From Hallerella sp. (GTDB taxonomy: Bacteria; Bacillota_I; Bacilli_A; RFN20; CAG-826), in contig CAVJFO010000015.1 in the NCBI GenBank assembly GCA_963648925.1, positions 117,426-181,425 of the forward strand: a stretch of 64,000 nucleotides of DNA. The letters are read 5' to 3'. Both the position numbers and the translations under genes were made by a program. Each line of letters opens with the position of its first letter. Position 1 is the first letter of the stretch. The notes beneath the pieces are model-generated. The model made no database searches, was not told where the DNA came from, and was given only the letters and a program-made list of their open reading frames with translations. Positions 48,487 to 64,000 of the stretch are shown here, one piece after another.

Positions 48487-48490
48487 TAAT

Positions 48491-49789: not shown

Positions 49790-49896
49790 AAAGTATCTTT
49801 GAAATAGAGGGCCGCTTAATCTTTAGAACGTAAGATTAGAAGAAAACCATTAAATATTTCTTTAATAATTTTTCTCTTTCACATATATTTAATGCC

Positions 49897-51186
49897 ATGG
49901 AAGAAAAAGATTTATTACAAATAGCGCCAGTCTCTAAAAGAGCTCTCTCTTTTATCATTGATTTCGTTCTGGCATTTTTACTTGGCATCATTGTCAATAG
50001 CACCCTCACAAGCACATATTTATTTAACGCTTTAGGAGGAGGAACCTTACAACAGGATTATTATTCTTTTGCCATTGATTCTGGACTTGTCAACTCAACG
50101 AAGAATGACGATGGAACAATTAAAACGATTTTCCTTTATTCTTATGCGCCTGACGGCAAGGAAAATACGACATTACAATATGTTGCAACCCCTAATGGTG
50201 AACTCGGTTATGAGGCGTATCTTGATATCGTTTGGGATTATTACACGAATTTCTATCCAAATGATTCAAGAATGATTCAACCTGAAGAATATGTTTATAG
50301 CAAAGAAGCCTTAGATTCTTATAAAACCTACGTTTACAAAGATATATTCCTTTTACCAAATCCTGGTAGCGTGGAAGGAAAAAGCGATGCTACATTGTAT
50401 TCAAGTGACGAGAATCAAATCTATTTCCAATATGATGTTAATGAAGACGGAACGCCTAATTTAAGCGTTAAGCCAACTCTTAGAGAGAATATCAAAAAAG
50501 ACCTTGAAGATGATATAAAAAGAAGCGATACATTGAAAAACCTTCGCGATTATTTCCTTGGAATAACGGAGTCATCATCCTCTCTTTCAATCGCCGGAAC
50601 TGGCATTTATTATCAAGCTGCCTTACATATGGAAGGGCAATCTGGCTCTAACCAAACATATTTCTCTAACATTTACACAAAAGTTAGCTGGATTAGCTGG
50701 GAATGCTCTCTTGTCGCATTATTACCATTCTATTTAATCATTTTCTATCTCGTTCCTGTCTTTGATAAAAAAGGCAGAACACTTGGCAAATGGGCTCTTG
50801 GAGTTGTCGTTATCAATAAAGATGGCACATATATGAAACTCTATCAAAGATTGCTTAGGCCTTTATATATGGTTGTCCTTTGCTCATTGACCTTAATTCC
50901 AAATAACGCCATATCTTTCTTAGCCTTTGGCGCGGTCGCTTTACTTGATTTTGGCTTTGCCTCATTTGGAAAAACGAGCCAATCCTTACATGACAAGCTA
51001 TTTAGAACCCTTGTTGTAACAAGAAAGAAATCCACAATCTTCAAAACGGTTGAAGAAAAAGAAGAATACCTCAAAAAAGAAAACGAAAGAATCGAAGAAG
51101 AAAGATCTATCAAAGTCCCTTCAACAGGCAAAAACCTTGATTTAGGTTCTTTGATTGAAGAAGAAGCAAAAGAAAATAATAATTAA
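49897..51186 (+). CDS. RDD-family membrane protein with a ~210-aa ectodomain insertion (paralogue 1)
   Basis: TM1 motif RALSFIIDFV, GRTLGKWALGV and SLHDKLFRTLVV match RDD (PF06271) motifs. Charged C-terminal tail. Confidence 0.65.
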   Translation: MEEKDLLQIAPVSKRALSFIIDFVLAFLLGIIVNSTLTSTYLFNALGGGTLQQDYYSFAIDSGLVNSTKNDDGTIKTIFLYSYAPDGKENTTLQYVATPNGELGYEAYLDIVWDYYTNFYPNDSRMIQPEEYVYSKEALDSYKTYVYKDIFLLPNPGSVEGKSDATLYSSDENQIYFQYDVNEDGTPNLSVKPTLRENIKKDLEDDIKRSDTLKNLRDYFLGITESSSSLSIAGTGIYYQAALHMEGQSGSNQTYFSNIYTKVSWISWECSLVALLPFYLIIFYLVPVFDKKGRTLGKWALGVVVINKDGTYMKLYQRLLRPLYMVVLCSLTLIPNNAISFLAFGAVALLDFGFASFGKTSQSLHDKLFRTLVVTRKKSTIFKTVEEKEEYLKKENERIEEERSIKVPSTGKNLDLGSLIEEEAKENNN

Positions 51187-51416
51187 TCTAACTTTGTTTT
51201 TAGGATATAACAATCATTCTTGCGATCATAGGCAATGATATAAGGAGAATTAGTTTTCGAAAGAAAATCCCTTAAATCATTGATATATCGTTTAAATCTC
51301 AAATCATTTATTAAGAGTTCATCTAAAACATCTCGTTTGTAGATGACTCTTTTTTCTTCTAACTTGCTATAGAGATATAAGAGGCAGAATGTTTTTGAAA
51401 ATCCATTTTTTCTCAT
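51183..51416 (-). CDS. Small hypothetical protein (77 aa), doubtful
   Basis: ORF only. No RBS and no family recognised. It lies in a 490-nt gap convergent with the upstream RDD gene. Confidence 0.2.
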   Translation of the reverse strand: MRKNGFSKTFCLLYLYSKLEEKRVIYKRDVLDELLINDLRFKRYINDLRDFLSKTNSPYIIAYDRKNDCYILKTKLD

Positions 51417-51675
51417 ATTTATTTGATTTTATATTTTTCTTCAACAAATAAAAACTGAATTCGTTTTGTTACTGGCGAATTGCTTAATTTTTACAATCGA
51501 GAGTTTTTTGATATTTCATAATCAGGAAAATTGACTATAATAATATTCGGAAGGACACCTTCCATAACATAGCAACGACACCCCCGTTCCTTTAGGAATG
51601 AAAAATTAAAAACGTTTTGTTTCTTTTTGTTTACCGGCGGTGTTTTTCTTTTTGTTGAATAGAAAGGTAATTTTA

Positions 51676-53811
51676 ATGAAAACAAAAAAATTGTGTTTGC
51701 TAGCCTTAGGCAGCATCTTCATGTTGGCAGGTTGCGGTGAAACCAATTCTAGCGAAAGTAACGCTAAAGAAGAAAGTTCATCCGTAAGTCAAAGCCAAGA
51801 TGAAATCTCATCAAGCGAATCTTCCTCCGAGTCTTCTAACGAAAGCTCATCCTCATCTTCATCCTACGATTTCGATTATGAATTAACGACTGTTGCTGAA
51901 GCTATTGAAATTGCTAACCAACACCAAACTGCTACGACAGAACGTTATTACATTTTTGGAACCATCACCGAGATTAGCGATGCAACCTATGGTTCAATGA
52001 CAATCGAAGATGAAACTGGTTCGATTTACGCTTACGGAACATATTCCGCAGACGGAGTTGATCGTTATAGTGTTTTAGAGAACAAACCACAAGTTGGAGA
52101 TCAAGTTGTCTTATATTCAACGCTTGTAATGTATAATGGCACTCCAGAAATCAAATCTGGCTGGATTGTTTGGCAAAGCACTAAAGAAAAAGAATTCAAC
52201 GAAGACGACTATGCGGCAAAAACTATTGCTGAAGCTCGTGAAATGAGCGCTGGATCCTTGGTTAAAGTTAGTGGAGTTGTCGCTAGAATAACCTATGCAA
52301 ACGGCATGATTCCATCTGGATTCTACGTTATCGATAACACATCCTCCATTTACATTCATTCAACCCTTGCTGCTAAAGTAGAAGAAGGAAATAAGATCAC
52401 TGTTTGTGGATCTGTTGATTTCTGGATTCTTGAAAATGAAACAACTAGCGCTGGTAAAGTCGGTTACAAAGGCTCATGCCAATTAAGCGATATAACAATT
52501 ACCGCAAACGACAATTCAACAGAGAACACCTTTGATAAATCCTGGATAGAGGAAAGTACCGTTAAAAATATTGTGGATACCCCTGCAACGGAGAATATCA
52601 CCAACAAGATATTCAAGGTTAATTCCTATGTGAAGAAAGTAAGCGCCCCAGGCTTTGTTAATTACTATTTAGATGATATTGATGGAGTTACTGGCTCCTA
52701 CGTCTATACTCAATGCAATGGCAGCGACTTCTCCTGGCTTGATGAATTTGACGGAAAAATTTGCACAGTTTATTTAACCGCTATCAATGCTAAATGCACT
52801 GGCGCTGGCGCCATTTGGCGTTTCATGCCAATCGAGGTAATCGATGAAGAATATCAATTCGATACAAAAGACGTTAACGAATACGTTTGGACTTATCATC
52901 TTGATGGACTTTTCCGTGAATCATATACCGGTGACCCAAATCTTGAAGTCCCAACAAGCGTTTCCTCTGAACTTTTAGGATTTGAAAACGCCACAATTTC
53001 TTATTCTTCTTCAAATACCGATGTTGCATATTTTGAAACAACCGAAGAAAACACCATTTTCCACACAAAAGATAATGGCAAGGCCACAATCACCATTGAC
53101 ATTGATTATGGTACAAACGAAACTCTTACTAAAACCTTTGATGTTACAGTCGCAAAAACTTCATATGATGATGCATTAACCGTAAAAGAAGCGATTGATG
53201 CAGCAAACCAAGAAGAAGTAATCGTTAAAGGAATTGCCGGTCCTTCACTTGTTAACCAAGTCGGATTCTACTTAATTGATGAGACTGGCGTTATTGCCGT
53301 TAAGACTACCTCAGAAGCAATGGCAGAAATCTCTTTAGGAAACGAAGTCGTCTTTAAAGGCACTAAAACTATTGGCTACGGAACAGTCGAAGGTTCTGAA
53401 ATTGCCGGAGAATCCTGTATTTTAGATTCAACTCTCGTTACCAACTTATATGGCAAACACGACTATTCAAGAGATACCTTCATCACAGATAAAACTCTTG
53501 CTGACGTTTACGCTTTAGATTATAAAGTTGATCACTCAACGGAAGTCTATACTGTTAAAGGCAAGATCAGCAAGACCGAAACTTCCTACTACACAACTAT
53601 TGCCATAGTTGATGGAGATACGAAACTTTCGCTTTATTGCTCTAGCGCAAATCAATATAACTGGTTAGCAAATGCCTTTGACGCGGATACTGAAGTTACC
53701 CTTGATATTGCTCCATGTAACTGGAACAAGAAAAAATACTGGGCTGGTTGCGTACTCTCTGCAACTGATGGAACCACTAGAGTTGATAACACCTTGAATT
53801 ACAGCAAATAA
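51676..53811 (+). CDS. Surface lipoprotein with a Ser-rich linker, at least three OB-fold-like repeats and a Big_2-like Ig domain (putative nucleic-acid binding)
   Basis: Lipobox LAGC. Repeats of the pattern 'TV.EA....g..v.v.G.i..i.....f.i.D.TG.I.vy'. Big_2-like segment ATISYSSSNTDVAYFE...ATITIDIDYG. Confidence 0.6.
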   Translation: MKTKKLCLLALGSIFMLAGCGETNSSESNAKEESSSVSQSQDEISSSESSSESSNESSSSSSSYDFDYELTTVAEAIEIANQHQTATTERYYIFGTITEISDATYGSMTIEDETGSIYAYGTYSADGVDRYSVLENKPQVGDQVVLYSTLVMYNGTPEIKSGWIVWQSTKEKEFNEDDYAAKTIAEAREMSAGSLVKVSGVVARITYANGMIPSGFYVIDNTSSIYIHSTLAAKVEEGNKITVCGSVDFWILENETTSAGKVGYKGSCQLSDITITANDNSTENTFDKSWIEESTVKNIVDTPATENITNKIFKVNSYVKKVSAPGFVNYYLDDIDGVTGSYVYTQCNGSDFSWLDEFDGKICTVYLTAINAKCTGAGAIWRFMPIEVIDEEYQFDTKDVNEYVWTYHLDGLFRESYTGDPNLEVPTSVSSELLGFENATISYSSSNTDVAYFETTEENTIFHTKDNGKATITIDIDYGTNETLTKTFDVTVAKTSYDDALTVKEAIDAANQEEVIVKGIAGPSLVNQVGFYLIDETGVIAVKTTSEAMAEISLGNEVVFKGTKTIGYGTVEGSEIAGESCILDSTLVTNLYGKHDYSRDTFITDKTLADVYALDYKVDHSTEVYTVKGKISKTETSYYTTIAIVDGDTKLSLYCSSANQYNWLANAFDADTEVTLDIAPCNWNKKKYWAGCVLSATDGTTRVDNTLNYSK

Positions 53812-53828
53812 TTAACAACAAAGAATGA

Positions 53829-53856
53829 CGGAGTCAGAAATGATTCCGTTTTTTCT
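53829..53856 (+). terminator. Rho-independent terminator
   Basis: Stem ACGGAGTC/GATTCCGT followed by a T6 run. Confidence 0.5.
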
Positions 53857-53891
53857 TTTGAGCGCCATTCTTTTTATTTATAATAAAAATC

Positions 53892-55079
53892 ATGCAAAAA
53901 GATTACGTTGAAAAAGAAGAAATCAAAACCGATAAAAACGGCGTACTAATCGTTAGGGGTTCTTCATTAAGAAGAGCTTTAGCGGAGTTGGCGGATATCT
54001 TAACTGCTTTTATTTTAGCCATAACGATTTATGGTGTGGGCTTTCAACGCTTGTTTGGCTATGACCACTATACAAATGAGATGAGCAAGGTTTCTTCTTC
54101 TATGACCTCGTTCATGATTGAACATAACTTATATAAGAAAAGCGATGACGGAAACATTTTGCTAAAAAGCGATTTGTCCTCTTATTGGTCATATTACTAC
54201 CTTGCTAACTCTGATTCTTCATATAAAAAAAGAAAGATTTATGAGCCAATAAAAGACTATTACACGGTCACAAGGATTTCATCTTTTGCTAGGATGAGCC
54301 AATACGAATACAACACGGAAATCCTCAAATTGCCAAAAACGCTTGATGGCTCTTATGAAGATAGCGTTTTCATATACGATTCAACAAGCGCGGATCCTTT
54401 AAATAACGAGCCAATATTCAAAGAAGAAATAGCAACAAACCTTAACACGTATTATTTAGGCAATACTGATGCTTATGAACCAAAAAACGCCTATCAAACA
54501 GTTTCTACATTCTTCTCAAATATCTACGACGTTGCTTTTTCAGAAGCGGTAAAAGATGAGACATATATGAATTTAGTCTTAGAATTTGCCTCCAAGATGT
54601 GGTCACGCTCTTACCTTCAATCCGCGGCAATAATTTCTTCCTATTTGCTTGGGGCAATTATCACTTTTTTACTTCTCCCTTTAATTCAATTGAGTGGCTT
54701 GACCCTAGGAAAAAGAGTAGCAAAGCTTCAAGTTAACGATCAATATGGTGATAAACCGCGTTGGTATTCTTTCTTGATTAGGGGTTTAGTGCAAATAATA
54801 TGTTACTGTTTCATGATTCCCCTTATCGGAGTTATGTCTTACGGATTCGGGGCTTTCGAGATGCCTTTGCTAGAGATAGGTTCGTTTAACTTAAACTTAT
54901 CTTTATTTGCAATTCTGGGCTTGTTATTAACCATTCTTTCCTTAGTTATGATGCTAGTAACCCCAGGAAAACAATCATTACACGATTTAGCTTCCTTGAC
55001 TTATGTTAATACCTCGGATATAAAAGTTATCCGTGATGAACAAAGCAAATTAGAGAAAAACGATCATGGAACAAAATAA
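53892..55079 (+). CDS. RDD-family membrane protein with a large ectodomain (paralogue 2)
   Basis: LTLGKRVAKL and SLHDLASLTYV RDD motifs. Ectodomain shares FFSNIYD and DDGNILLKS motifs with paralogue 1. Confidence 0.6.
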   Translation: MQKDYVEKEEIKTDKNGVLIVRGSSLRRALAELADILTAFILAITIYGVGFQRLFGYDHYTNEMSKVSSSMTSFMIEHNLYKKSDDGNILLKSDLSSYWSYYYLANSDSSYKKRKIYEPIKDYYTVTRISSFARMSQYEYNTEILKLPKTLDGSYEDSVFIYDSTSADPLNNEPIFKEEIATNLNTYYLGNTDAYEPKNAYQTVSTFFSNIYDVAFSEAVKDETYMNLVLEFASKMWSRSYLQSAAIISSYLLGAIITFLLLPLIQLSGLTLGKRVAKLQVNDQYGDKPRWYSFLIRGLVQIICYCFMIPLIGVMSYGFGAFEMPLLEIGSFNLNLSLFAILGLLLTILSLVMMLVTPGKQSLHDLASLTYVNTSDIKVIRDEQSKLEKNDHGTK

Positions 55080-56124
55080 AACGGCTAATACATTAGAATA
55101 TTTCAAAGCGCCATTTGGCAAAAGAATGGTTTCGATAATAATTGAAATTTTTCTTCTTTCATTTGGCTTTTTAGCTTTTCTTTTTTGTTCGCGTCTTATC
55201 GTTGAAAGAATGCCGTTATATACTGATTCATTCGACACATATATCAATATTTCAAAGGATTCTGGATTATACGTTTGCGATAAAACAACCGATAATAACC
55301 TTGTGACTCTTACCGAATATTATGGAAGCAAATCATACGAAACGCAAAATAACGTTATCGAAAAAGCGCTCACTAAGTTTTACACCTTAGAAGAATTCTT
55401 TTCCCAAGATGAAAATAGCGATACGTATGGCCCAAATATTTATTACAAACAAAAAATAGGCGAGACACGTATTGGAAACGATGAAGGAGTGGATTATTTT
55501 TTATTGGACGCAACAGGTACCCCAAAGAAAAACCCTTCATTTACTGAAGAGAAGATGAACGCCTTTTACCTTACGGCATATGATCGCGCTGTTTCCTATA
55601 TTCAAAACAATGAATCTTACCTTCAAGCAAGAAACGTCTTAACAATTTATATCAACCTCGTTTTGATACCTCTTTCGATTGTTCTTTCTTTTTTGATATT
55701 CGAAGTTCTCATCCCTTTAACAATCGGACGAAGAGGCAAACAAACCTTAGGGATGAAATCAATGAAACTTTCTCTTCTTTCTGTTGATGCGCTCTCTTGC
55801 AAGGCAAATAGATTTATCGCTAGGCAAGCGATTCAACTCTTTTTGATTATCTTGTTATCTCTTGTCTCTTTTGGCATTCCTTTAATCGTTTCTTTTTCAA
55901 TGATGATATTTAGAAAAGATGGCCAATGCCTCCATGATTATTTATCTGGAACCTATATGGTTGATTCATCCGAACAATCTGTTTATTTAACTTACGAAGA
56001 GATGAATAACCTCAAAAAGAAAGCGGAAGATAGCTACAATAAAGGCATCCAATCTTCAAGAAAAAATCAAAAAGACATTCCTTTGGGAGATGACTCAATT
56101 TGGCGCAATTTACGCGATAAATGA
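55066..56124 (+). CDS. RDD-family membrane protein with a large ectodomain (paralogue 3)
   Basis: GRRGKQTLGMK and CLHDYLSGTYMV RDD motifs. Overlaps paralogue 2 by 14 nt. Confidence 0.6.
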   Translation: MEQNKTANTLEYFKAPFGKRMVSIIIEIFLLSFGFLAFLFCSRLIVERMPLYTDSFDTYINISKDSGLYVCDKTTDNNLVTLTEYYGSKSYETQNNVIEKALTKFYTLEEFFSQDENSDTYGPNIYYKQKIGETRIGNDEGVDYFLLDATGTPKKNPSFTEEKMNAFYLTAYDRAVSYIQNNESYLQARNVLTIYINLVLIPLSIVLSFLIFEVLIPLTIGRRGKQTLGMKSMKLSLLSVDALSCKANRFIARQAIQLFLIILLSLVSFGIPLIVSFSMMIFRKDGQCLHDYLSGTYMVDSSEQSVYLTYEEMNNLKKKAEDSYNKGIQSSRKNQKDIPLGDDSIWRNLRDK

Positions 56125-56236
56125 GCAAATGTATTCGCTTACATTTATCTGAAAACTATTTATTAAAAATAGTGGTATTGAATTAAAGAGTTTTTTCTCT
56201 TAAAATTTGGTATGCAAAAAATGATTGGAGACGCTC

Positions 56237-57394
56237 ATGGAGATTAGACTAAAAAATCTTACCAAATGCTTCCCAGGAAACCCAAAAAAGGGAATTCCTG
56301 ATACTTACGCAGTGAATGCTTTGGACGTTACCATTCCTGATGGAAAATTAGTTGGACTTTTAGGCCCTTCTGGATGTGGTAAATCAACAACTCTTTATAT
56401 GGTTGCTGGTCTTTTGGAACCTACCGAAGGTGAAATTTGGTTTGGTGATGAAGATGTTACGGATCTTGAACCTGAAAAAAGAGGAATTGGCTTGGTTTTC
56501 CAAAACTATGCCCTTTACCCACATATGACAGTTTATAAGAATGTAGCCTTCCCTTTAACCAACCTTCGTATCGAAGAAAAAGTTCTTGATCAAAATGGAA
56601 ACGAAGTTTTAGATGAAACCGGAAAACCATATATCAAAAAGAGAAAGTTAACCAAGGATGAAATCGATAAAATCGTCCGTGAAACCGCTAAAATTGTCCA
56701 AATCGAAGAATATTTGGAAAGAAAGCCAAATCAACTTTCTGGTGGTCAGCAACAACGTGTTGCCATCGCTAGAGCTTTAGTCAAAAAACCAAAAGTTCTC
56801 TTACTTGACGAACCTCTTTCAAACTTAGATGCTCGTTTAAGACTTCAAACTCGTGAAGAAATCAGAAGAATTCAACAATCTACTGGCATTACCACGATAT
56901 TCGTTACCCATGACCAAGAAGAAGCTATGTCTATCTCCGATGAGATTGTAGTTATGAAGCTTGGCGTTGAACAACAACGTGGTGTTCCTCAAGATGTTTA
57001 TAACAACCCATGCAACAAGTTCGTTGCTAACTTCTTAGGCACTCCTCCGATCAACCTTTTCAAAGGACATATCAAAGATAACAAGGTCTACGTTGGTGAA
57101 GAAGTAGTCCGTGAAATTACCGAAAAAGATGTTCCAGATCAAGAATGTACAGTCGGTATTCGTCCAGAAGGTATCATCGTTGACGAAAAAGGAACATTCA
57201 CATTCAATTGCGAGCGCATCCTTACTATGGGACGCGATATTATGCTTGCTTCCGAACATCCTGAAGCAATCTCTAATACCAAATTCTTAGTTGACGCCTT
57301 CGTTAAAGTTTCAACAGGCGTGGTTCACGCTTCTATAAAACCTCATAAATGTTTTGCTTTCTCTTTAGAAGGGAATGAGGAGAGGATTATCTAA
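56237..57394 (+). CDS. ABC transporter ATP-binding protein, MalK/UgpC/MsmX type with a C-terminal TOBE-like domain
   Basis: Walker A GPSGCGKST, signature LSGGQQQRV and Walker B LLLDEP. Confidence 0.92.
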   Translation: MEIRLKNLTKCFPGNPKKGIPDTYAVNALDVTIPDGKLVGLLGPSGCGKSTTLYMVAGLLEPTEGEIWFGDEDVTDLEPEKRGIGLVFQNYALYPHMTVYKNVAFPLTNLRIEEKVLDQNGNEVLDETGKPYIKKRKLTKDEIDKIVRETAKIVQIEEYLERKPNQLSGGQQQRVAIARALVKKPKVLLLDEPLSNLDARLRLQTREEIRRIQQSTGITTIFVTHDQEEAMSISDEIVVMKLGVEQQRGVPQDVYNNPCNKFVANFLGTPPINLFKGHIKDNKVYVGEEVVREITEKDVPDQECTVGIRPEGIIVDEKGTFTFNCERILTMGRDIMLASEHPEAISNTKFLVDAFVKVSTGVVHASIKPHKCFAFSLEGNEERII

Positions 57395-57396
57395 GC

Positions 57397-58482
57397 ATGG
57401 AAAATTCTGCGACCACTGCGAAAAAAGGCAATATATTCTCCAGATTCTTTAAGAAGAAGGAGAGAGTTTCTGCCGATGCTGGAGAAAAGAATAACTGGAA
57501 GGCCTGGCTTTATCTTGCCCCTGTAATTATTCTTTTATCAGTTTTTACTTTTTATCCTTTAATTAATACTATCGTAATCGCCTTCCTTAGGGATTATGAC
57601 TACACGACCCAAACAAATACTGGATTTACCTTAGATAATTTCTTGACCGTTTTAACTTTAGCGGGTAAGGATCCAGCATCAAATTTGGTTTATCGCTGGA
57701 ATTGTTTCTATGATGAAACGCTTGGTGGCTTAGCCTATATCAATGAGGCTGGCGCCGCAACACGTGTTTATTTCCAAACGGATGTCTTAACATACGCATT
57801 GCCAAACACGATGCTTATCACCTTCGTTACCGTTCCAGTATCTATAATCATCGCATTATTGATATCTGTATGCCTTAATTCAATTAAAGCCTTTAAAAAG
57901 GTTTTGCAGACGATTTTCTTTATTCCTTATGTTACTAACGCTATTGCCGTCGGCATGGTCTTTGCTGTTTTATTCGATTCGCAAGGTATTTTGAACTTTA
58001 TCTTCGGTCTTGGCAATCACAAATGGATTGATGGTGGCGCTACATGGGGATCCGGTATGCTTGCCTTATGCATTTACATCGTTTGGCATGCTTTACCATA
58101 TAAAATCCTTATATTCTTATCAGCTCTTCAAAACATCGATAAACAATACTATGATGCAGCTAAAATCGACTGCGCTGGCAAATGGAAAACATTCTGGCAT
58201 GTTACAGTTCCAATGCTTTCCCCACAAATTCTTTATATTATGATCACCTCCTTTATCGGATCATTTAAAGAATACACATCAGTCGTTGGCTTATTCGGCT
58301 CTCCATCCACAGATGGCGGTTCGACAAAGAACATGTACACGATTGTTTATTACATTTACGAATGCTTAAGCGCGCCTACAACCGTTTCTAGAGGTGCAGC
58401 AGCAGCAGTCTTACTCTTTATCATCATTATGATATTCACCGCAATTCAATTCCAAGTTTCTAAGAGGAGGGTTCATTATTAA
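57397..58482 (+). CDS. ABC transporter permease (CUT1, MalF/UgpA-like)
   Basis: Six TM helices. EAA-like loop (AAKIDCAGKWKTFWHVTVP). Confidence 0.85.
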   Translation: MENSATTAKKGNIFSRFFKKKERVSADAGEKNNWKAWLYLAPVIILLSVFTFYPLINTIVIAFLRDYDYTTQTNTGFTLDNFLTVLTLAGKDPASNLVYRWNCFYDETLGGLAYINEAGAATRVYFQTDVLTYALPNTMLITFVTVPVSIIIALLISVCLNSIKAFKKVLQTIFFIPYVTNAIAVGMVFAVLFDSQGILNFIFGLGNHKWIDGGATWGSGMLALCIYIVWHALPYKILIFLSALQNIDKQYYDAAKIDCAGKWKTFWHVTVPMLSPQILYIMITSFIGSFKEYTSVVGLFGSPSTDGGSTKNMYTIVYYIYECLSAPTTVSRGAAAAVLLFIIIMIFTAIQFQVSKRRVHY

Positions 58483-58483
58483 T

Positions 58484-59533
58484 ATGGCTTACGATTCAAG
58501 AAATTTTATCCAACGCCTTCTCAAAATGAAGTCTCGTGAAGAGAAACAAGCTGAAAGAGAAGCAAAACCTGAATATCAAGCAATTAACACTGCTTCGATG
58601 TCATTAGTCATCAAAGAAGGAAGAGCAGATGCTGTTCAACTTCAAAAAGCTCAAAAAATTGGACGTGTGATTACTTCAGTTATTACATATGCTTTCCTTT
58701 TGTTTATGAGTGTTATCATCCTTTTCCCATTTTATTGGATGATTATCACCTCCTTAAAGAGCACGACGGAAATCCGTTCTTCAACCCAAACATTCTTCCC
58801 TGCAACAGTCTTATGGACAAACTACATTACAGTTTTTAACACATTTGACTTTATTACTTATGTAGGCAACACATTGGTTGTTGGCATTATCTCTACCATT
58901 GGTACGATAATTACGACAATTCTTGCCGCATTTGCCTTTGCTAGACTTAATTTCAAAGGGAAAGACTTCATCTTTGCGATTTTATTGGCAACAATGATGA
59001 TCCCTGGCGAAATGATGGTTATTACAAACTATATCACCGTCGCTAAATTACCTTGGTATGAATTTGGCGTTGGACAAGTAACCGGATGGCTTACATATAA
59101 AGATTCGGTATTCGCCTCGATGATCGTTCCTTTCTGGGTATCAGTCTTCTATATTTATTTATTAAGACAAAACTTCAAACAAATCCCTAATGAACTTTAT
59201 TTGGCTGCTAAGGTTGATGGAAAGTCTGATTGGCAATTCCTCTGGCACGTCATGGTTCCACTAGCTATGCCTACTTTGATTTCTATATTTATCCTTAAAT
59301 TAATGGGTACTTGGAACTCTTATGTTTGGCCTCAACTCGTTACGGCAGGAAATGAATCTTGGAGATTGGTCACTAACGGTCTTCGTTCATCCTTCTCAAC
59401 AACTGCAGGAGAACCGCAATATGGCATTCAGATGGCGGCGACAATCCTTGTAACAGTTCCGTTACTATTATTGTTTATTTTCTTCCGCAAGTATATTATG
59501 AAAGGCGTTGGCCGCGCCGGTATTAAAGGCTAA
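58484..59533 (+). CDS. ABC transporter permease (CUT1, MalG/UgpE-like)
   Basis: Six TM helices. EAA loop (AAKVDGKSDWQFLWHVMVP). Confidence 0.85.
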   Translation: MAYDSRNFIQRLLKMKSREEKQAEREAKPEYQAINTASMSLVIKEGRADAVQLQKAQKIGRVITSVITYAFLLFMSVIILFPFYWMIITSLKSTTEIRSSTQTFFPATVLWTNYITVFNTFDFITYVGNTLVVGIISTIGTIITTILAAFAFARLNFKGKDFIFAILLATMMIPGEMMVITNYITVAKLPWYEFGVGQVTGWLTYKDSVFASMIVPFWVSVFYIYLLRQNFKQIPNELYLAAKVDGKSDWQFLWHVMVPLAMPTLISIFILKLMGTWNSYVWPQLVTAGNESWRLVTNGLRSSFSTTAGEPQYGIQMAATILVTVPLLLLFIFFRKYIMKGVGRAGIKG

Positions 59534-59591
59534 GGTTAAATTTGGTTACATTTCGTAAGAATGTGATATAAAAAAGAAAATGGAGAGAAAA

Positions 59592-61037
59592 ATGTCTAAG
59601 AAAAAATTATTAACAGGCGTTCTTGCAGTCTTATCTGCAGCATTCATCGCGACAAGCTGTGGAGAAACTGATAAGGACAACGGCAGTTCCAATGCCGATG
59701 ACGCTACAAGCAGCCAATCATCTTCTAACACAGCTGATACATCAGCTTTCGATCAACAAGTTACCGCTTTAGGCGATTTGAAAAAGCTTAGCTGTGAAGT
59801 TACCTTCTGGCACACAATGGGTAAATCCAACCAAACTTATTTGGATACTTTCATCGAACAATTCAACAAAGTCTATCCAAACATCAAAATCACCGGTTCC
59901 CAACAAGGTGGGTATGACGAGCTAAAGACCGCTGTTTCTAACGCAATTCCAGCTGGAACAACCCCAACGATGACATATTGCTACCCAGATCACGTTGCCG
60001 ACTATCTTCCTTCCGATTCTGTCGTCAAACTTGACAATTTCATGAATTCTAAAGTCATTGGTTTAGGAGTTGATAATGGTCTTGGCGATGGTGATGCTGA
60101 CGATTTCATCCAAACATATTTGCATGAAGGCGATAATTACACCGTCTCTGGCAAAAAAGTCGAAGGCTATTACTCAATGCCTTTCTCTAAATCAACAGAA
60201 GTTCTTTTCTATAACAAAGACGCTTTTGAAACAAATGGCTGGCAAGTTCCTGAAACTTGGGATCAAATGTGGACTCTTTGCGAAACAATCAAAGCAACAT
60301 ATGGTGATGATGTTACTCCATTAGGATACGACTCTGATGCAAACTTCTTTATCACTTATTGCGCACAAAACAATATCCCATATACAACTGGCGAAGGCAG
60401 TGAACACTTCCTTTTCAATAACGATAAAGCAAAAGCTTTCGTTAACACAATTAAGGATTACTCCGCTAATGTTGGCAGCGGCTATTGGACTTCCCAAACT
60501 CAACTTGGTTCAGGAACCTATACCTCAACAAAATTCACCAATGAAGAAATCTTCATGTCTATTGGCTCTACTGGCGGAACCACATATAACGTTTCAGAAA
60601 ATTTCGAAACTGGCGTTGCAGCTTTACCACAATCCGATTTAAATAACGGAAAAGTCATCATGCAAGGACCTTCCATCTGCTTTATGTCTGATTCTACCTT
60701 AGCTCAAAGAGTTGGTGCTTGGTTATTCTATAAATTCATCACCAATACTCACAATTCAGCTATTTGGTCTTCTAGCACCGGTTATAACCCAGTTAGAACA
60801 TCCTCTTTCACCGATGAGGCATATGCTACATCTAAATCTAGCTTAGTTAACACAGTTCTCCAATTTACAGGCACTGGATCTTCCTATGCTGATTGGTACT
60901 ACACATCTCCATCTTTCAAAGGCTCTTCAGCCGCTAGAACTCAAATCACCAACTTAATGTCTGGTGTTTTGACTGGTACAAAAACTGTTGATCAAGCTTT
61001 CGAAGATGCATATCAAAACTGCTTATTTGCAGCTTAA
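59592..61037 (+). CDS. ABC transporter substrate-binding lipoprotein (family 1), copy 1
   Basis: Lipobox ATSC. FWHTMGK and CYPDHVA motifs shared with copy 2. Confidence 0.85.
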   Translation: MSKKKLLTGVLAVLSAAFIATSCGETDKDNGSSNADDATSSQSSSNTADTSAFDQQVTALGDLKKLSCEVTFWHTMGKSNQTYLDTFIEQFNKVYPNIKITGSQQGGYDELKTAVSNAIPAGTTPTMTYCYPDHVADYLPSDSVVKLDNFMNSKVIGLGVDNGLGDGDADDFIQTYLHEGDNYTVSGKKVEGYYSMPFSKSTEVLFYNKDAFETNGWQVPETWDQMWTLCETIKATYGDDVTPLGYDSDANFFITYCAQNNIPYTTGEGSEHFLFNNDKAKAFVNTIKDYSANVGSGYWTSQTQLGSGTYTSTKFTNEEIFMSIGSTGGTTYNVSENFETGVAALPQSDLNNGKVIMQGPSICFMSDSTLAQRVGAWLFYKFITNTHNSAIWSSSTGYNPVRTSSFTDEAYATSKSSLVNTVLQFTGTGSSYADWYYTSPSFKGSSAARTQITNLMSGVLTGTKTVDQAFEDAYQNCLFAA

Positions 61038-61052
61038 TTCATAACAACACAT

Positions 61053-61078
61053 ATAGGCGGAATCTTTTTTCCGCCTAT
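61053..61078 (+). terminator. Strong hairpin (10-bp stem) between the two binding-protein genes; weak U-tract, so a possible partial terminator or mRNA stabiliser
   Basis: Perfect inverted repeat ATAGGCGGAA-TCTTTT-TTCCGCCTAT. Confidence 0.35.
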
Positions 61079-61105
61079 ATTCAAATTTAGACGAGGTACA
61101 CGATA

Positions 61106-62518
61106 ATGAAAAAAAGAAATCTAGCTTTGTTATTAGGAATAGGGGTTTTATCTCTTGCAGGATGCGGTGAGACGGTTAATTCTTCTACTGATGCTTCAAA
61201 CTCGAATGATGGAAATAGCCAAAACGGCTCTTCTAGCACGAACTCTGGCAAGGTAGAAGTTGAATTCTGGCACACCATGGGCAAGGCCAATCAAGATATT
61301 CTTGAAGGCATGATAAAGGCTTTTGAAGCAGAAAATCCAGACATCACCATTAAACAAAGTGCTGCTGCTGGCGGCTATGACGATTTAGAGCAATTGATTC
61401 TTAAGAACGTTGCTACAAGCGGCTTACCAACAATGGCTTTCTGCTATCCTGATCACGTTGCTGAATATCTTAATAGCGGAAGTAGTGGAATCGTAACTGA
61501 TTTAACCTCGTTTATAAATGATCCTGAATTAGGATTCACGGTAGAAGATGGTTCCCACGTCGATGAAGATGGGAATACTGTCTATGGCGTTGATGACTTC
61601 GTTCCAACATTCTGGGAAGAAGGATGCAATTACACCAAAGAAGGTGTTTATAGCGTTCCATTTGCCAAATCCACCGAAGCTTTATTCTATAACGTAGATA
61701 TGTTTGAAGAATATGGTTGGGAAGTTCCTCAAACTTGGGATCAAATGTGGGCTCTTTGCAAAGAAATCAAAGAAATGGATTTCCCTGAGGTTCAAGCTCC
61801 ATTAGGATACGATTCCGATTCAAACTTATTTATCTCTTTATCCGAACAAATGGATCTTCCATATACTAGTGCGACTGGAAATCACTATTTGTTTGATAAT
61901 GCACAATCTAAGGCTATGGTTAGCGATCTTAAGGCAAAATATGACCAAGGGTTGTTCATCACAAAAGGATCTTCTGGAAATAACACCTACACCTCAACAA
62001 AATTTACGAATGGCGAAGTGTTAATGACAATTGGATCAACTGGTGGCACCACATATAACCAAACGCAAAACTTCACTGTCGGAGTTGCTGAGCCTCCAGC
62101 ATACGATCTTTCAAAGAAAGCCGTCATTTCTCAAGGCCCATCGATTTGTTTCTTCAATGCCGCCTCATCGAAAGCAGCTTCTCCAGCTCAACTTAAGGCC
62201 GCTTGGAAATTCTATAAATTCATTTCAAACGCCGAGAATAGCACCTTATATTCCGTTTCAACCGGTTACCAACCAGTAAGAACATCATCTTATGAAACTG
62301 AAATATATAAGAATTTTGCTTCTGGTACCACAAGCCTTTTAAATAGAGTTGCAAACGTTTCTTCGACCATGCTTGATTCATATTTCAATTCTCCAGTTTT
62401 CATTGGCTCAGCCAAAGCTAGAGACGAAGTCGGCTCTTTAATTAGTGCGGTTCTCCTCGGAACAAAAGATGTCGATAAAGCATTTGAAGACGCTTTAGCT
62501 AATTGCGTTATGGGATAA
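61106..62518 (+). CDS. ABC transporter substrate-binding lipoprotein (family 1), copy 2
   Basis: Lipobox LAGC. Paralogous to copy 1. Confidence 0.85.
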   Translation: MKKRNLALLLGIGVLSLAGCGETVNSSTDASNSNDGNSQNGSSSTNSGKVEVEFWHTMGKANQDILEGMIKAFEAENPDITIKQSAAAGGYDDLEQLILKNVATSGLPTMAFCYPDHVAEYLNSGSSGIVTDLTSFINDPELGFTVEDGSHVDEDGNTVYGVDDFVPTFWEEGCNYTKEGVYSVPFAKSTEALFYNVDMFEEYGWEVPQTWDQMWALCKEIKEMDFPEVQAPLGYDSDSNLFISLSEQMDLPYTSATGNHYLFDNAQSKAMVSDLKAKYDQGLFITKGSSGNNTYTSTKFTNGEVLMTIGSTGGTTYNQTQNFTVGVAEPPAYDLSKKAVISQGPSICFFNAASSKAASPAQLKAAWKFYKFISNAENSTLYSVSTGYQPVRTSSYETEIYKNFASGTTSLLNRVANVSSTMLDSYFNSPVFIGSAKARDEVGSLISAVLLGTKDVDKAFEDALANCVMG

Positions 62519-62531
62519 AAAGGAGACTTTT

Positions 62532-64000
62532 ATGAAATTAAAAAAGAAATTAATTGGATGCTTATTATCAGGACTCTTCCTTTCGAGTCTTGTTTCCTGC
62601 CAAAATAACGTTAATTCATCAAATAACGATGCTTCCTCAAACGCGGATACTCAATCTTCCATAAACGAAGATACTTCATCCGAAGAAAAAAAATGGGTTG
62701 ATTATACCGCCACAACAAAACTCACCCATGAATATTCTGGAAAGAATTTCTTAAGCGATGGCATAGGAGAGGTCACTCTTGTTACAAAAGTTGATGGAGA
62801 TACCGCTCACTTCAAACAAAAAAGTGGTGCTACAGGTACAATCAAAGGCAGATACAATTGCATTGATACACCTGAATCCACTGGTATGATCGAACCTTGG
62901 GGACATGGTGCTTCCGAATACAATGGCAAACTTTTAACTGAAGCTAAGCACATCGTTTTATCAACTGATAGCACCGATTCCACGACTGGACCTGCACTTG
63001 ATTCAACGGGTGGAAGATATCTTGTTTATGTTTGGGTTGCAAATGTTGAAAACCCAACATTAGATGATTTCATCAATGTAAACTTAGCCATTTGCCAACA
63101 AGGCTATTCCAAGGCAAAAGGCGTTTCTGGCAAAGAATATGCTGATTCATTCGTCAATGCTGACACTCAAGCAAAAGAGTTCAAATTACACCTTTGGAGT
63201 GATGAATTAGATCCAGATTATAACTATGACGATCCTGTGAAAATCGATTTAAGAATGATTGTCGAAGGATATGATAGCGAAGGAGAGAAATATAACTGGG
63301 TTGGATCCAAGGTTACATTTAACGCTTATGTTGCAGCCTGTGGCCCAGATACTGGCGCTGCCTACGTTTGCGATGATATCACCTGGACTGATGAAAGTGG
63401 CGAGCACACGCAAAGATATGGTATGTATATCTTTACTCAATATATCGTCTATGCTCCATTACAAACAATTGGTAACTACCTTGAAATATCCGGTATCGTT
63501 TCTGAATACAATGGCACATTACAAGTAGTAGACGTTTCTTATTCAGCCTACTATCCAGATGATTATGATATAAAGATCCTCTCTACTGGACACACGGATA
63601 AAGTTGAACCTGCAACTGGCTCAGCTGGAACATTCGCTAATGATAAATATGTCAACACGATGGTCACAGTCGATTTAGTCTGCACTGGTGGTTATGCAAC
63701 CATTAATACGGCCACCACGACTGCCTATTCCTTTACTTTATATTGCCACGATAAAAATAATCCAAGCGAATCACTCAATATCCGTATTGCTGATTCAATC
63801 AATATCAAATATCCAGATACCGTTGTTCGTATTCAAGATTGCATCGGTTTCTGGACAGGCGAGAAGTCCATCGCCGAAGCGGTAAACAATGGCAAAAACA
63901 CTGATTCTAGAAAACTAGAATATATCACTATCACTGGAGCTGTCGTAAAATATATTACGACAACTGGTAAAACAACTTACCAGGTCAATCTCACCAAGAA
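62532..64000 (+). CDS. Membrane nuclease lipoprotein: staphylococcal-nuclease (SNase/thermonuclease) domain plus C-terminal OB-fold-like domains (3' partial; runs off the window)
   Basis: Manual translation. Lipobox LVSC. SNase motif KVDGDTAHF...GRYNCIDTPE...LHLWSD. Frame is open to the window end. Lies 13 nt after binding-protein copy 2. Confidence 0.75.
   Translation, partial: MKLKKKLIGCLLSGLFLSSLVSCQNNVNSSNNDASSNADTQSSINEDTSSEEKKWVDYTATTKLTHEYSGKNFLSDGIGEVTLVTKVDGDTAHFKQKSGATGTIKGRYNCIDTPESTGMIEPWGHGASEYNGKLLTEAKHIVLSTDSTDSTTGPALDSTGGRYLVYVWVANVENPTLDDFINVNLAICQQGYSKAKGVSGKEYADSFVNADTQAKEFKLHLWSDELDPDYNYDDPVKIDLRMIVEGYDSEGEKYNWVGSKVTFNAYVAACGPDTGAAYVCDDITWTDESGEHTQRYGMYIFTQYIVYAPLQTIGNYLEISGIVSEYNGTLQVVDVSYSAYYPDDYDIKILSTGHTDKVEPATGSAGTFANDKYVNTMVTVDLVCTGGYATINTATTTAYSFTLYCHDKNNPSESLNIRIADSINIKYPDTVVRIQDCIGFWTGEKSIAEAVNNGKNTDSRKLEYITITGAVVKYITTTGKTTYQVNLTK

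Follow-up and report, generated by a model that had tools for sequence, protein, structure and literature searches.

In mycoplasmas, genes for staphylococcal nuclease (SNase)-type lipoproteins lie beside, and are co-transcribed with, Ugp-like ABC transporter genes and a gene for a lipoprotein resembling a solute-binding protein (SBP), and these have been described as 'putative nucleotide transporter' operons (PMC3585158, PMC4045577, PMC9740415). The proposed logic is that nucleic acid is bound and cut and its precursors are imported; moreover, MslA of M. gallisepticum binds DNA, and surface SNases of mycoplasmas break down neutrophil traps and have cytotoxic effects (PMC3585158, PMC4045577, PMC9740415). 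The homologous-looking transporter of M. pneumoniae, MPN134-136, is annotated as a glycerol-3-phosphate (G3P) system and an MPN133 mutant grows poorly on glycerol. Surface nucleases bearing OB folds occur among Firmicutes as B. subtilis YhcR (OB, SNase and 5'-nucleotidase domains), S. pyogenes SpnA and S. suis SsnA. These have an LPXTG cell-wall anchor and N-terminal OB domains, and their genes are not known to belong to operons for ABC importers; YhcR yields 3'-nucleotides through its SNase domain.

Here we analysed a 64,000-nt window, meaning the whole stretch of DNA under study (contig CAVJFO010000015.1, positions 117,426-181,425, forward strand, assembly GCA_963648925.1). The host is an uncultured, mycoplasma-related gut lineage of the class Bacilli, whose genes read without interruption under translation table 11, the standard bacterial one. 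The window probably shows the first half of a conserved locus of ~20 kb for the use of extracellular nucleic acids, with the following features:

49897..51186, + strand: RDD0, RDD-family membrane protein, 429 aa (PF06271, 57.1 bits)
51183..51416, - strand: small divergent ORF, 77 aa, upstream of OBLP; a 49%-identical ORF stands at the same position in locus L087
51676..53811, + strand: OBLP, 711-aa lipoprotein with lipobox LAG/C, five OB domains and one Ig-like domain
53827..53860, + strand: terminator-like hairpin and T-run after OBLP, a 10-pair stem then TTTTTCTTTT
53892..55079, + strand: RDD1, RDD-family membrane protein, 395 aa (PF06271, 47.3 bits)
55066..56124, + strand: RDD2, RDD-family membrane protein, 352 aa (PF06271, 36.9 bits), overlapping RDD1 by 14 nt
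56178..56206, + strand: promoter-like by match to consensus only, TTGAAT-17-TAAAAT, within the 112 nt that precede the ATPase gene
56237..57394, + strand: ABC ATPase of MalK/UgpC type (PF00005, 127.9 bits) with an OB_MalK C-terminal domain; best NCBIfam match UgpC, below cut-off
57397..58482, + strand: permease 1, UgpA/MalF-like (PF00528, 75.7 bits)
58484..59533, + strand: permease 2, UgpE/MalG-like (PF00528, 67.2 bits)
59580..61037, + strand: SBP1, lipoprotein of the CUT1 UgpB/U3GBP branch (PF13416, 112 bits)
61051..61080, + strand: hairpin between SBP1 and SBP2, perfect 12-bp stem and 6-nt loop
61106..62518, + strand: SBP2, paralogous lipoprotein solute-binding protein (PF13416, 121 bits)
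62532..64000, + strand: SNase-OB lipoprotein of 500 codons, of which the window covers 489; SNase domain at residues ~78-225, OB domain C1 at ~236-340, OB-like C2 at ~345-500

The order ATPase-permease-permease-SBP(1-2)-SNase is kept in 80/80 related species-level genomes, the best 80 of 511 relatives, across which nuclease identity ranges from 31 to 86%. If the two had no function in common, it would be difficult to account for an SBP-nuclease junction that persists in all of these, down to ~31% identity and with just a few nucleotides between the genes. Genetic coupling of the SNase lipoprotein gene to those of a CUT1 ABC importer and its duplicated binding proteins is thus well supported. 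The original prediction had at its core a mycoplasma-like nuclease-ABC logic, and both this gene order and the published mycoplasma precedent support it: the cluster is a genuine variant of the known arrangement, larger and found outside the mycoplasmas, with a predicted substrate and activity. Moreover, the module exceeds its first description, having RDD membrane proteins upstream and, past the window end, more lipoproteins, membrane proteins and a second nuclease of the LTD-SNase type. Of the same best 80 loci, 58 have RDD genes upstream of the ABC genes, about 31 carry a second SNase-domain gene, and 59 encode a conserved multi-OB lipoprotein downstream of the nuclease, past the window end. 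This lipoprotein has three OB domains of the type seen in nuclease C1 and OBLP, and the same Ig-like domain as OBLP. RDD0 directly adjoins RDD1-RDD2 in relatives L011, L012, L024, L033, L039 and L042. The likely ATPase start, by comparison with the homologue in L048, is ATG 56237, the mechanical ORF start being TTG 56225.

A clear SNase domain had been read in the lipoprotein at 62532, and the analysis confirms it. The protein has a lipobox (LVS/C), and its Pfam match is to SNase PF00565 (40.6 bits against a cut-off of 21; E 3.9e-10). A profile built from 115 homologues matches S. aureus thermonuclease over the whole domain (E 2.6e-20), and the AF2 model (pLDDT 90.7) fits experimental SNase structures at TM 0.85-0.89 on superposition. 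On alignment, D88-G89-D90-T91, R107, T113-P114-E115 and R162 are invariant in the 115 homologues and D112 is present in this nuclease; read in this way, the catalytic Arg, Glu and Asp and the Ca2+-binding residues of the SNase fold are all present. Nor is the gene truncated, since an identical 500-aa protein (P0001) exists: completed beyond the window, it reaches its stop 11 codons past the end, and its C-terminus is conserved in homologues. Its start lies 13 nt after the SBP2 stop, the distance originally given, with the ribosome-binding site AAAGGAGA in front. The OB-fold-like repeats that follow had been assigned to the same type as those of the 51676 lipoprotein. This is supported for C1 (residues 236-340), which matches OBLP OB2 (hhalign 95.5%, E 1e-8) and OB1 (88.7%), while C2 (345-500) shares OB topology only. 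As a point against nucleic-acid handling, the nuclease domain is acidic and so is every OB domain (pI 4.1-4.9, C2 alone reaching 5.9), in contrast to the basic S. aureus nuclease and the usual basic DNA-binding OB fold.

SBP1 and SBP2 are indeed duplicated genes, as had been proposed, with 45% identity between the paralogues (E 9e-130). At loci with two SBPs, those in first position are SBP1-like and those in second position SBP2-like, and one lineage-specific pocket residue is Ala in SBP1 and Ser in SBP2; judged from these sequences, the duplication is ancient. Conserved motifs particular to this family are YPDHVA, YDSDxNxFI and GSTGG. The hairpin between the two genes folds at -19.4 kcal/mol (z = -5.5), with 0/200 shuffles folding as well, and carries compensatory changes in the closest relatives (L001-L009, L011 and L080). 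It was not found in the more distant two-SBP loci of the compared set. The original prediction was right that this hairpin is perfect, while its stem is 12 bp on folding, not 10.

The nearest PDB relatives of the binding proteins are the 7c0f series (SBP1 E 4e-21, SBP2 E 1e-14), followed by UgpB. The 7c0f entry is probably the Thermus dinucleotide-binding protein; the depositors' name for these closest structures is 'sugar-binding protein'. The UgpB phosphate tetrad Y65/S144/S270/Y346 and R397 are conserved in 120/120 nuclease-linked SBPs, and MalE, a sugar binder used as control, has 0 of these residues. The UgpB glycerol clamp, W192/W195, is absent from the same 120 SBPs and also from 7c0f. 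This tetrad marks the branch of UgpB, glycerophosphocholine (GPC)-binding and dinucleotide (U3G)-binding proteins, and the Trp clamp is specific to small-pocket G3P binders, its absence going with larger pockets (PMC12718374). Retention of the tetrad without the clamp therefore points to a phosphorylated cargo larger than G3P. Most plausibly, to judge by these residues, it would be the 3'-nucleotides and dinucleotides made by an SNase-type enzyme. The same tetrad also occurs in binders of G3P and glycerophosphodiesters, and so the importer may instead carry phosphoesters of lipid head groups and not nucleotides.

This possibility belongs to a wider alternative of phosphate or lipid-precursor acquisition, which we consider unlikely, namely that the importer is a Ugp-like carrier of G3P or glycerophosphodiesters and that the nuclease serves a shared phosphoester- and phosphate-scavenging programme in which nucleic acid is a source of phosphorus, not of nucleotides. 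Among named NCBIfam families the importer is matched best by UgpC, UgpA, UgpE and UgpB, all below cut-off, and MPN134-136 of M. pneumoniae are drawn as a G3P transporter with the MPN133 mutant impaired on glycerol; full conservation of the UgpB tetrad and R397 fits as well. Set against this are the loss of both glycerol-clamp tryptophans in all 120 SBPs, with the larger pockets that go with it (PMC12718374), and the identity of the conserved partners, which are nucleases and OB-fold proteins. Moreover, the scanned conserved gene families of the 80 loci gave no Pfam match to a glycerophosphodiesterase, nucleotidase, phosphatase or Pho-type regulator. It is more improbable still that the nuclease acts on the environment, be it mucus or biofilm DNA, host DNA traps or foreign DNA, beside an unrelated sugar importer to which it is linked by history. 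Trap degradation and cytotoxicity of mycoplasma surface SNases are consistent with such a role, CUT1 systems are mostly sugar carriers, and the nearest PDB entries are named accordingly. However, the strict SBP-nuclease junction argues against a historical linkage, and the SBP pocket residues are of the phosphate-ester type that MalE lacks.

The role of OBLP is more evenly balanced. The 51676 lipoprotein was correctly described as an OB-fold protein: besides its lipobox, the AF2 model (pLDDT 88.1) contains five beta1-3/helix/beta4-5 barrels (~69-168, 180-278, 290-390, 500-592 and 605-704) and one Ig-like domain (~397-492). The OB domains are mutually related by hhalign, their Pfam OB-fold matches fall below cut-off (23.8 vs 27 bits), and there are more than 2500 homologues. 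The best Foldseek matches, p204 HIN-dsDNA (E 4e-9), RPA, Teb1 and RADX, are tandem-OB nucleic-acid binders. OBLP is acidic throughout (every domain pI 4.2-4.9, mature protein pI 4.3). Its placement in the same operon is doubtful: it has its own terminator, between it and the ATPase gene lie two RDD genes and the 112-nt gap with the promoter-like site, and its position varies. OBLP stands between RDD0 and RDD1 in the closest clade only and elsewhere in L011 and L089, lying at the opposite end of the cluster in L011. In other Firmicutes a near-identical architecture at ~50% identity is encoded by a standalone gene in unrelated contexts, the neighbours being alpha-amylase and MFS transporter genes, defence genes, or GdpP and a Flg_new_2 protein. 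Therefore OBLP probably lies outside the ABC-nuclease operon. Given its own terminator, its other positions elsewhere and its strong acidity, both operon membership and DNA binding are no more than putative, and 'DNA capture' by a protein whose every domain is acidic can be suggested at most. The small divergent ORF upstream gave no match in a Pfam scan. We put at slightly under even the chance that OBLP is a surface stalk, an adhesin or a glycan or protein binder, inserted by chance beside the cluster in this clade, and not a nucleic-acid binder. OB folds also bind sugars and proteins, and a separate terminator and upstream region, standalone relatives, acidic domains and sub-threshold Pfam matches would all suit such a protein. 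Nucleic-acid binding is favoured by the same OB subtype being fused to the nuclease and filling the conserved downstream lipoprotein, by the homologue at the other end of the cluster in L011, by structural matches that are DNA-bound tandem-OB proteins, and by one standalone copy that adjoins a xanthine/uracil permease gene.

Taken together, a nuclease joined to a pump with phosphate-type binding proteins makes it most likely that the cluster feeds the cell on outside nucleic acids. We hold this with somewhat better than even confidence, the functional steps being drawn from sequence, predicted structure and synteny. The lipid-anchored nuclease, with Ca2+, would cut DNA or RNA at the cell surface while the polymer is held by its OB domains. 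By the established enzymology of SNases, such cleavage yields mono- and dinucleotides that bear a 3'-phosphate. SBP1 and SBP2, each with its own preference, would bind the phosphorylated products and hand them on to the permeases, which would import them at the expense of ATP. The hairpin after SBP1 may terminate some of the transcripts or block 3'-exonuclease, so that SBP1 and the genes before it would be expressed at another level than SBP2 and the nuclease. Nucleic acid may be tethered by OBLP and by the conserved multi-OB lipoprotein encoded immediately beyond the window, with the RDD membrane proteins as putative conserved accessories.

Compared with known systems, OBLP resembles the OB-barrel chains of HIN-200 proteins (p204/IFI16/AIM2), RPA70, Teb1 and RADX (Foldseek E 4e-9 to 1e-4, probability 1.0), with 9-14% identity and no detectable sequence relationship; global TM is 0.1-0.4 because the domain arrangement differs. 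These eukaryotic proteins are intracellular and basic, whereas OBLP is a surface-exposed, acidic lipoprotein. The binding proteins have the Tyr/Ser/Ser/Tyr tetrad and Arg in common with the T. thermophilus U3G-binding protein and with UgpB of E. coli and M. tuberculosis, and like the U3G- and GPC-binding proteins they lack the Trp clamp; sequence similarity to 7c0f and UgpB is weak (E 1e-14 to 4e-21), and the Thermus protein is not known to have a nuclease as its genetic neighbour. As in YhcR, SpnA and SsnA, OB-fold and catalytic domains are combined in one surface polypeptide, here with a lipid anchor and C-terminal OB domains instead. The closest parallels in gene content are the mycoplasma operons: M. 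agalactiae MAG_5030(P80)-MAG_5040-MAG_5050/5060/5070, M. hyopneumoniae mhp379, M. pneumoniae MPN133-136, M. gallisepticum MslA-MGA_0676 and M. bovis MBOVPG45_0307-0311. Common to these and the present cluster are an SNase surface lipoprotein and, encoded next to it, an SBP-like lipoprotein and a 'sugar'/Ugp-like ABC importer made up of a single ATPase and a pair of permeases. The order here is ATPase-permease-permease-SBP-SBP-SNase, in contrast to SBP-SNase-ATPase-permease-permease in mycoplasmas, and the SNase domain is N-terminal with two C-terminal OB-type domains, whereas that of MAG_5040 occupies residues 182-343 of 390. The cluster additionally has two SBPs, two or three RDD proteins, multi-OB lipoproteins and often a second LTD-SNase, and it resides in an uncultured gut Bacilli lineage using code table 11 and not in a mycoplasma. 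Feeding on outside nucleic acids by means of such a cluster, as we propose here, has already been put forward for mycoplasmas.

Beyond 49.9 kb every ORF of the window lies on the + strand, one small ORF excepted; the genes are arranged as follows.

Genes from 49.9 kb to the window end (positions on the window)
49897-51186, + strand: RDD0, RDD-family membrane protein, Pfam RDD match (PF06271)
51183-51416, minus strand: small divergent ORF of 77 aa without a family match
51676-53811, + strand: OBLP, a 711-aa multi-OB lipoprotein, lipobox LAG-C
53892-55079, + strand: RDD1, RDD match (PF06271)
55066-56124, + strand: RDD2, RDD match (PF06271)
56237-57394, + strand: ABC ATPase, ABC_tran with a MalK-type C-terminal domain
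57397-58482, + strand: permease 1, BPD_transp_1
58484-59533, + strand: permease 2, BPD_transp_1
59580-61037, + strand: SBP1, binding-protein lipoprotein, SBP_bac_1/8, lipobox ATS-C
61106-62518, + strand: SBP2, binding-protein lipoprotein, SBP_bac_1/8, lipobox LAG-C
62532->64000, + strand: SNase lipoprotein gene running off the window, SNase match, lipobox LVS-C

The lipobox Cys of these lipoproteins is kept in their homologues. Window DNA has a GC content of ~35-45% and its ORFs are open throughout under the standard bacterial code. Upstream, the + strand carries the str operon (rpsL, rpsG, fusA, tuf; confirmed by Pfam), preceded in window 1-46900 by ORFs whose sizes and order suggest ribosomal-protein genes and rpoB/rpoC, also on the + strand. 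This is therefore chromosomal DNA. A family-2 glycosyltransferase gene on the minus strand (40550-42286) interrupts this + strand run of ribosomal-protein-like, rpoB/rpoC-like and str genes. The succession of tuf and then the nuclease-importer cluster is common to the window and L087, a relative at 54% identity. Between tuf and RDD0 (47107-49789) the window has an ORF of 459 aa and, in tandem, genes for two small paralogous lipoproteins of 212 and 208 aa, whose N-termini share the form MNKNK...TSC-NKQNTIQEEM; none of the three has a Pfam match; since these genes are missing from this position in L087, they look like a clade-specific insertion. The small minus-strand ORF has a 49%-identical counterpart at the same position in L087 (9568-9813; ORFs of 77-81 aa) and may encode a regulator of the OBLP gene. 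No Rfam family, and hence no riboswitch that would name a ligand, was found in window 47000-64000.

The gene at 62532 starts, as originally predicted, 13 nt after SBP2, and is preceded by a ribosome-binding site. It extends 11 codons beyond the window: an identical protein in the protein collection (P0001) is 500 aa long and its C-terminus (...LTLHMSEE) is common to homologues, so the gene has neither a frameshift nor an early stop. Downstream of a signal peptide and the lipobox LVS-C, the SNase domain matches PF00565 at 40.6 bits (curated cut-off 21), and a profile of homologues aligns at E 2.6e-20 with residues 11-143 of the 149-residue S. aureus nuclease. The AlphaFold (AF2) model (pLDDT 90.7) has a predicted SNase fold, an OB-like barrel with three helices, and Foldseek places residues ~78-225 on solved SNase structures with a target-normalised TM of 0.85-0.89 and an rmsd of 2.0-2.9 A. 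None of 115 homologues deviates at D88-G89-D90-T91, R107, T113-P114-E115 or R162, which correspond to D19-G20-D21-T22, R35, T41-P42-E43 and R87 in the S. aureus enzyme. The equivalents of the Ca2+ ligands (S. aureus D21, D40 and T41; here D90, D112 and T113) and of the catalytic residues (R35, E43 and R87; here R107, E115 and R162) are all present, D112 being the sole such active-site residue that is not invariant among the 115. These results bear out the prediction of an intact SNase-domain lipoprotein with its catalytic Arg, Glu and Asp residues, and we consider it very probable, on homology and modelled fold, that the product is a surface nuclease.

The SNase domain was also said to be followed by OB-like repeats of the OBLP type. 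The model does hold two further barrels (~260-333 and 377-497), both with the strand-strand-strand-helix-strand-strand order of OB folds. In a domain-wise profile comparison the first of these proved homologous to OBLP domains OB2 (95.5%, E 1e-8) and OB1 (88.7%), which upholds the claim for that domain, while the second gave no match. A 97% whole-alignment hhalign match was set aside, as it falls in columns without P0001 residues. The predicted surface proteins of the locus (51676-64000) are all strongly acidic (pI 4.1-4.9). This includes the SNase domain, whose S. aureus counterpart is by contrast very basic; the acidity could be typical of this organism's exoproteome, or it could reflect divalent-cation dependence in nucleic-acid binding.

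A scan of one genome per species yielded 511 relatives of the nuclease, from which the best 80 were taken. In all of these (80/80) the SNase lipoprotein gene lies beside SBP-like and ABC genes on the same strand, and the order ATPase-permease-permease-SBP (one or two)-nuclease holds wherever the upstream DNA suffices, even at ~31% nuclease identity. Reliable-looking labels of the relatives are 'Bacilli bacterium', 'uncultured Mollicutes bacterium', 'Bacillales bacterium UBA...', Coprobacillus sp. CAG:826, Anaeroplasmataceae and Erysipelotrichales. L002, L003, L005, L006, L008, L080 and others are labelled Sodaliphilus, Bacteroides uniformis, Lachnospiraceae, Alistipes, Escherichia coli or Faecalibacterium; with a 77-86% identical cluster in the same synteny, they clearly belong to one Bacilli lineage and look like mislabelled metagenome bins. 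Clustering of all ORFs from the 80 loci revealed a larger conserved same-strand cluster, which includes the following families.

Further gene families of the cluster (loci out of 80)
RDD genes: 58
~725-aa lipoprotein directly 3' of the nuclease: 59
274-aa lipoprotein: 23
second nuclease gene: ~31 (the copy in L001 joins a lamin-tail domain to SNase)
zinc-ribbon protein with two transmembrane segments: 46
232-aa membrane protein: 21
278-aa lipoprotein: 21

Exact-sequence searches with SBP2 and full-length P0001 located no DNA of this genome past 64000, and for genes beyond the window end these statements rest on relatives of 84% identity or less. In the 84%-identical relative, L001, the counterpart of the DNA just past window position 64000 (11540-18195) carries the following genes, all on the same strand and mostly without a Pfam family.

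Genes in L001 11540-18195
796-aa lipoprotein with three OB domains, Big_2 and Flg_new_2
274-aa lipoprotein
406-aa protein with a lamin-tail domain and SNase, the second nuclease
zinc-ribbon protein with two transmembrane segments
232-aa membrane protein
278-aa lipoprotein

By profile comparison the three OB domains of the post-nuclease lipoprotein match OBLP OB1 (97.8%, 94.8% and 74.8%), and its Ig-like domain is the same as that of OBLP (86.5%). This second half of the cluster is present in all ten closest relatives, and beyond it lies unrelated housekeeping, a large ORF whose sequence, judged by eye, resembles pyruvate:ferredoxin oxidoreductase. The window therefore contains roughly the first half of a ~20-kb conserved locus. 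Nuclease and importer are likely to be functionally coupled. RDD0, RDD1 and RDD2, whose genes immediately precede those of the importer, are paralogous, each with a large non-RDD N-terminal part. Published accounts of RDD proteins, which range from a claimed Na+/H+ antiporter through Mce-associated proteins to 'role unknown', offer no function that fits. In one subgroup of loci (L047-L079) the upstream RDD gene is separated from the ATPase gene by one for a membrane-anchored protein of 500-700 aa (cluster c12). The ATPase of this group (e.g. L048 2879-4783) reaches ~635 aa because of a ~250-aa insertion between the Walker A region and the signature motif; the window ATPase has a shorter insertion at the same site.

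All parts of a CUT1 importer were found by Pfam (PF00005, PF17912, PF00528 twice, PF13416 and PF01547), namely an ATPase of the MalK/UgpC type that ends in a regulatory OB domain, two permeases (BPD_transp_1) and binding protein of the SBP_bac_1/8 type. Uptake of DNA by natural competence was rejected because the transporter is of a kind that imports small solutes by way of a binding protein; moreover, none of the proteins scanned from the window and from downstream L001 has a ComEA/ComEC-type domain. A role in anti-phage defence was also considered; the components are housekeeping-type importer genes adjoining the str operon. The importer's top NCBIfam matches are UgpC/A/E/B, MalK/F/G and GlcV/T/U, all under equivalog cut-offs, and the best named of these, UgpC/A/E/B, fall far under theirs. 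SBP1 also matches the mycoplasma P68 lipoprotein model, too weakly (42 bits, cut-off 200) to be counted as a sign of orthology. The Ugp matches would speak for glycerophosphoesters; the UgpB model itself, however, is reached at 73.7 bits against a cut-off of 411, which lies outside UgpB sensu stricto. Of solved structures, the 7c0f series comes closest to SBP1 and SBP2 (E 4e-21 and 1e-14), and UgpB next. Entries 7C0F-7C1B are probably those of the Thermus thermophilus dinucleotide (uridylyl-3'-5'-phosphoguanosine)-binding protein of Chandravanshi et al. 2021.

A dinucleotide-binding protein of T. thermophilus has been placed in CUT1, and two Tyr and two Ser that coordinate phosphate are strictly kept in UgpB, the glycerophosphocholine binder and the dinucleotide binder but not in glucose binders, whereas two glycerol-clamping Trp are specific to small-pocket G3P/G1P binders (PMC12718374). 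With the tetrad defined as in that study, E. coli UgpB and, as a control, MalE were aligned with the SBPs. Equivalents of UgpB Y65, S144, S270, Y346 and R397 (E. coli precursor numbering) are present in SBP1, SBP2 and 120/120 nuclease-linked SBPs, and none of them in MalE. The Trp clamp (W192 and W195 of the E. coli precursor) is absent from 120/120, its positions being taken by Ala/Ser/Asp and Phe/Tyr/Leu, as in 7c0f. With the tetrad kept and the clamp absent, the predicted pocket has the signature of a binder for phosphate esters that exceed G3P in size. The products of SNase-type enzymes are mono- and dinucleotides with a 3'-phosphate, and no match to a nucleotidase, phosphatase or glycerophosphodiesterase was found among the conserved gene families scanned. 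Such a pocket, together with this lack of a nucleotidase or phosphatase match, would fit direct uptake of phosphorylated nuclease products. Judged by sequence, the chances appear evenly divided as to whether nucleotides or dinucleotides, rather than glycerophosphoesters, would be the cargo. At least two loci (L028 and L048; L048 14575-15717) have within the cluster a lipoprotein with a Cys-based phosphatase motif (HCAQGKDRTG), which might dephosphorylate nuclease products at the cell surface.

The two binding proteins are 45% identical. Among 41 two-SBP loci, the first SBP is SBP1-like in 25 and SBP2-like in 3, with a tie in the remainder; the second is SBP2-like in 32/41 and SBP1-like in none. 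Moreover, the pocket residue equivalent to W192 is lineage-specific, being Ala or Asp in the first SBP and Ser in 35/41 of the second. The duplication is thus an ancient one, and ligand preference probably differs between the copies. A perfect hairpin had been predicted between their genes and is present there, with a stem of 12 bp rather than the 10 bp claimed (6-nt loop, -19.4 kcal/mol, z = -5.5, 0/200 shuffles as stable). It is followed on the + strand by only a weak T tract. Equivalent stem-loops with compensatory base changes occupy the same gap in L001-L009, L011 and L080, the L011 version having a clear T-run; more distant two-SBP loci have no such stem-loop. Most likely the element would act as a partial terminator or stabilise the mRNA.

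OBLP consists of the lipobox LAG-C, a Ser-rich linker, five OB-type barrels and one Ig-like sandwich (model pLDDT 88.1). All five units show OB topology in the order of their AF2 secondary structure, a barrel of five strands with a helix separating the third from the fourth, and they are mutually related by domain-wise profile comparison. The closest solved structures in Foldseek are p204 HINab-dsDNA (E 4e-9), RPA-ssDNA, Teb1, RADX and the HIN domains of IFI16/AIM2; the top matches are OB-fold chains bound to nucleic acid. Against the Pfam OB model (PF01336-like) OBLP scores 23.8 bits, under the cut-off of 27, and many homologues carry a precomputed PF01336 match. BLASTP of OBLP gave nothing significant against either the nuclease or the downstream lipoprotein of L001, and its kinship with both is seen only by domain-wise profile comparison. 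Every OBLP domain is acidic (pI 4.2-4.9), yet aromatic-rich; OB folds that bind nucleic acid usually do so by a basic or aromatic face. Binding of nucleic acid by OBLP, as its modelled fold would suggest, is plausible, at a level of confidence just short of even.

The original prediction counted OBLP among the genes of the importer-nuclease operon, and this part of it does not hold up well. The OBLP stop is followed, after 16 nt, by a hairpin of 10 pairs and then TTTTTCTTTT. Several more distant genomes have the three RDD genes side by side, without an intervening OBLP; in L011 a 41%-identical homologue is found at the far end of the cluster, and in L089 a 68%-identical copy lies among unrelated genes. 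The family has >2500 members at ~50% identity, the source names of a few matches pointing to Clostridia, and no functional name is given by the source for any of the family matches listed. Both of the homologues of this kind that we looked up are standalone genes with unrelated neighbours. Given this hairpin, the variable placement, the standalone homologues and the acidity of its domains, OBLP is probably outside the operon. Three observations speak for a functional link: the nuclease itself includes an OB domain of this subtype, such domains also fill the conserved post-nuclease lipoprotein of relatives, and the position between RDD0 and RDD1 is kept in the window's clade, down to 54% identity. 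Standalone homologues (~50-68% identical; L083/L084 8001-11815, L085 8001-10526 and L089 10001-15488) have varied surroundings: one adjoins genes for a xanthine/uracil permease and BREX/TerB-type defence, one those for an alpha-amylase and an MFS transporter, and one those for a 1066-aa Flg_new_2 protein and GdpP.

Taken together, a surface nuclease working with an importer to use extracellular nucleic acids is, on balance, the reading that we favour for the whole. More tentatively, and in our estimation still short of probable, the cluster could be a locus devoted to nucleic-acid utilisation in gut Bacilli with reduced genomes. Phosphorylated nuclease products (3'-nucleotides, dinucleotides or short oligonucleotides) would then be imported directly by the CUT1 importer, without dephosphorylation to nucleosides, the two ancient SBP lineages would split the product range, and the RDD membrane proteins and multi-OB lipoproteins would be obligatory components. 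Were this so, the locus would represent the first genetically defined (oligo)nucleotide ABC importer family and, by extension, would settle the cargo of the nuclease-linked 'Ugp-like' transporter of mycoplasmas. A nucleotide cargo would moreover tie the turnover of extracellular DNA/RNA to the nutrition of abundant, uncultured and probably auxotrophic gut bacteria, and could help in culturing them. We found no description of such a cluster in gut Bacilli in the literature searched.

A surface nuclease beside an ABC transporter is the long-standing putative model for nucleotide supply in mycoplasmas. The genes of the SNase lipoproteins MAG_5040, mhp379, MPN133, MHO_0730, MbovNase and MGA_0676 adjoin those of a 'sugar' or Ugp-like ABC transporter and an SBP-like lipoprotein, the set being regarded as a putative nucleotide-transporter operon and, in M. 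agalactiae, co-transcribed (PMC3585158, PMC4045577, PMC9740415). The M. gallisepticum lipoprotein MslA binds ss- and dsDNA, as cited in PMC4045577. The cargo of the nuclease-linked transporter has been variously annotated as sugar, glycerol-3-phosphate or nucleotide; in M. pneumoniae the counterpart is drawn as a G3P system, and an MPN133 mutant is impaired on glycerol. The predicted likeness to these operons stands as regards adjacency and strand, a SNase lipoprotein gene lying beside SBP-like lipoprotein and ATPase/permease genes on the same strand in 80/80 relatives, but arrangement and parts differ. The mycoplasma order is SBP-SNase-ATPase-permease-permease (PMC3585158), compared with ATPase-permease-permease-SBP-SBP-SNase here, with two binding proteins rather than one. 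Unlike the mycoplasma nucleases, that of the window has an N-terminal SNase domain followed by OB domains, the same domains that fill the adjoining lipoproteins. The binding proteins of the locus combine a phosphate-ester pocket signature with the absence of the glycerol clamp. RDD proteins, extra OB lipoproteins and a second nuclease further set this locus apart from the mycoplasma system, as does its host lineage. The coupling of nuclease and ABC transporter is thus not peculiar to mycoplasmas, and is strictly kept, within a much larger cluster, in many uncultured gut Bacilli.
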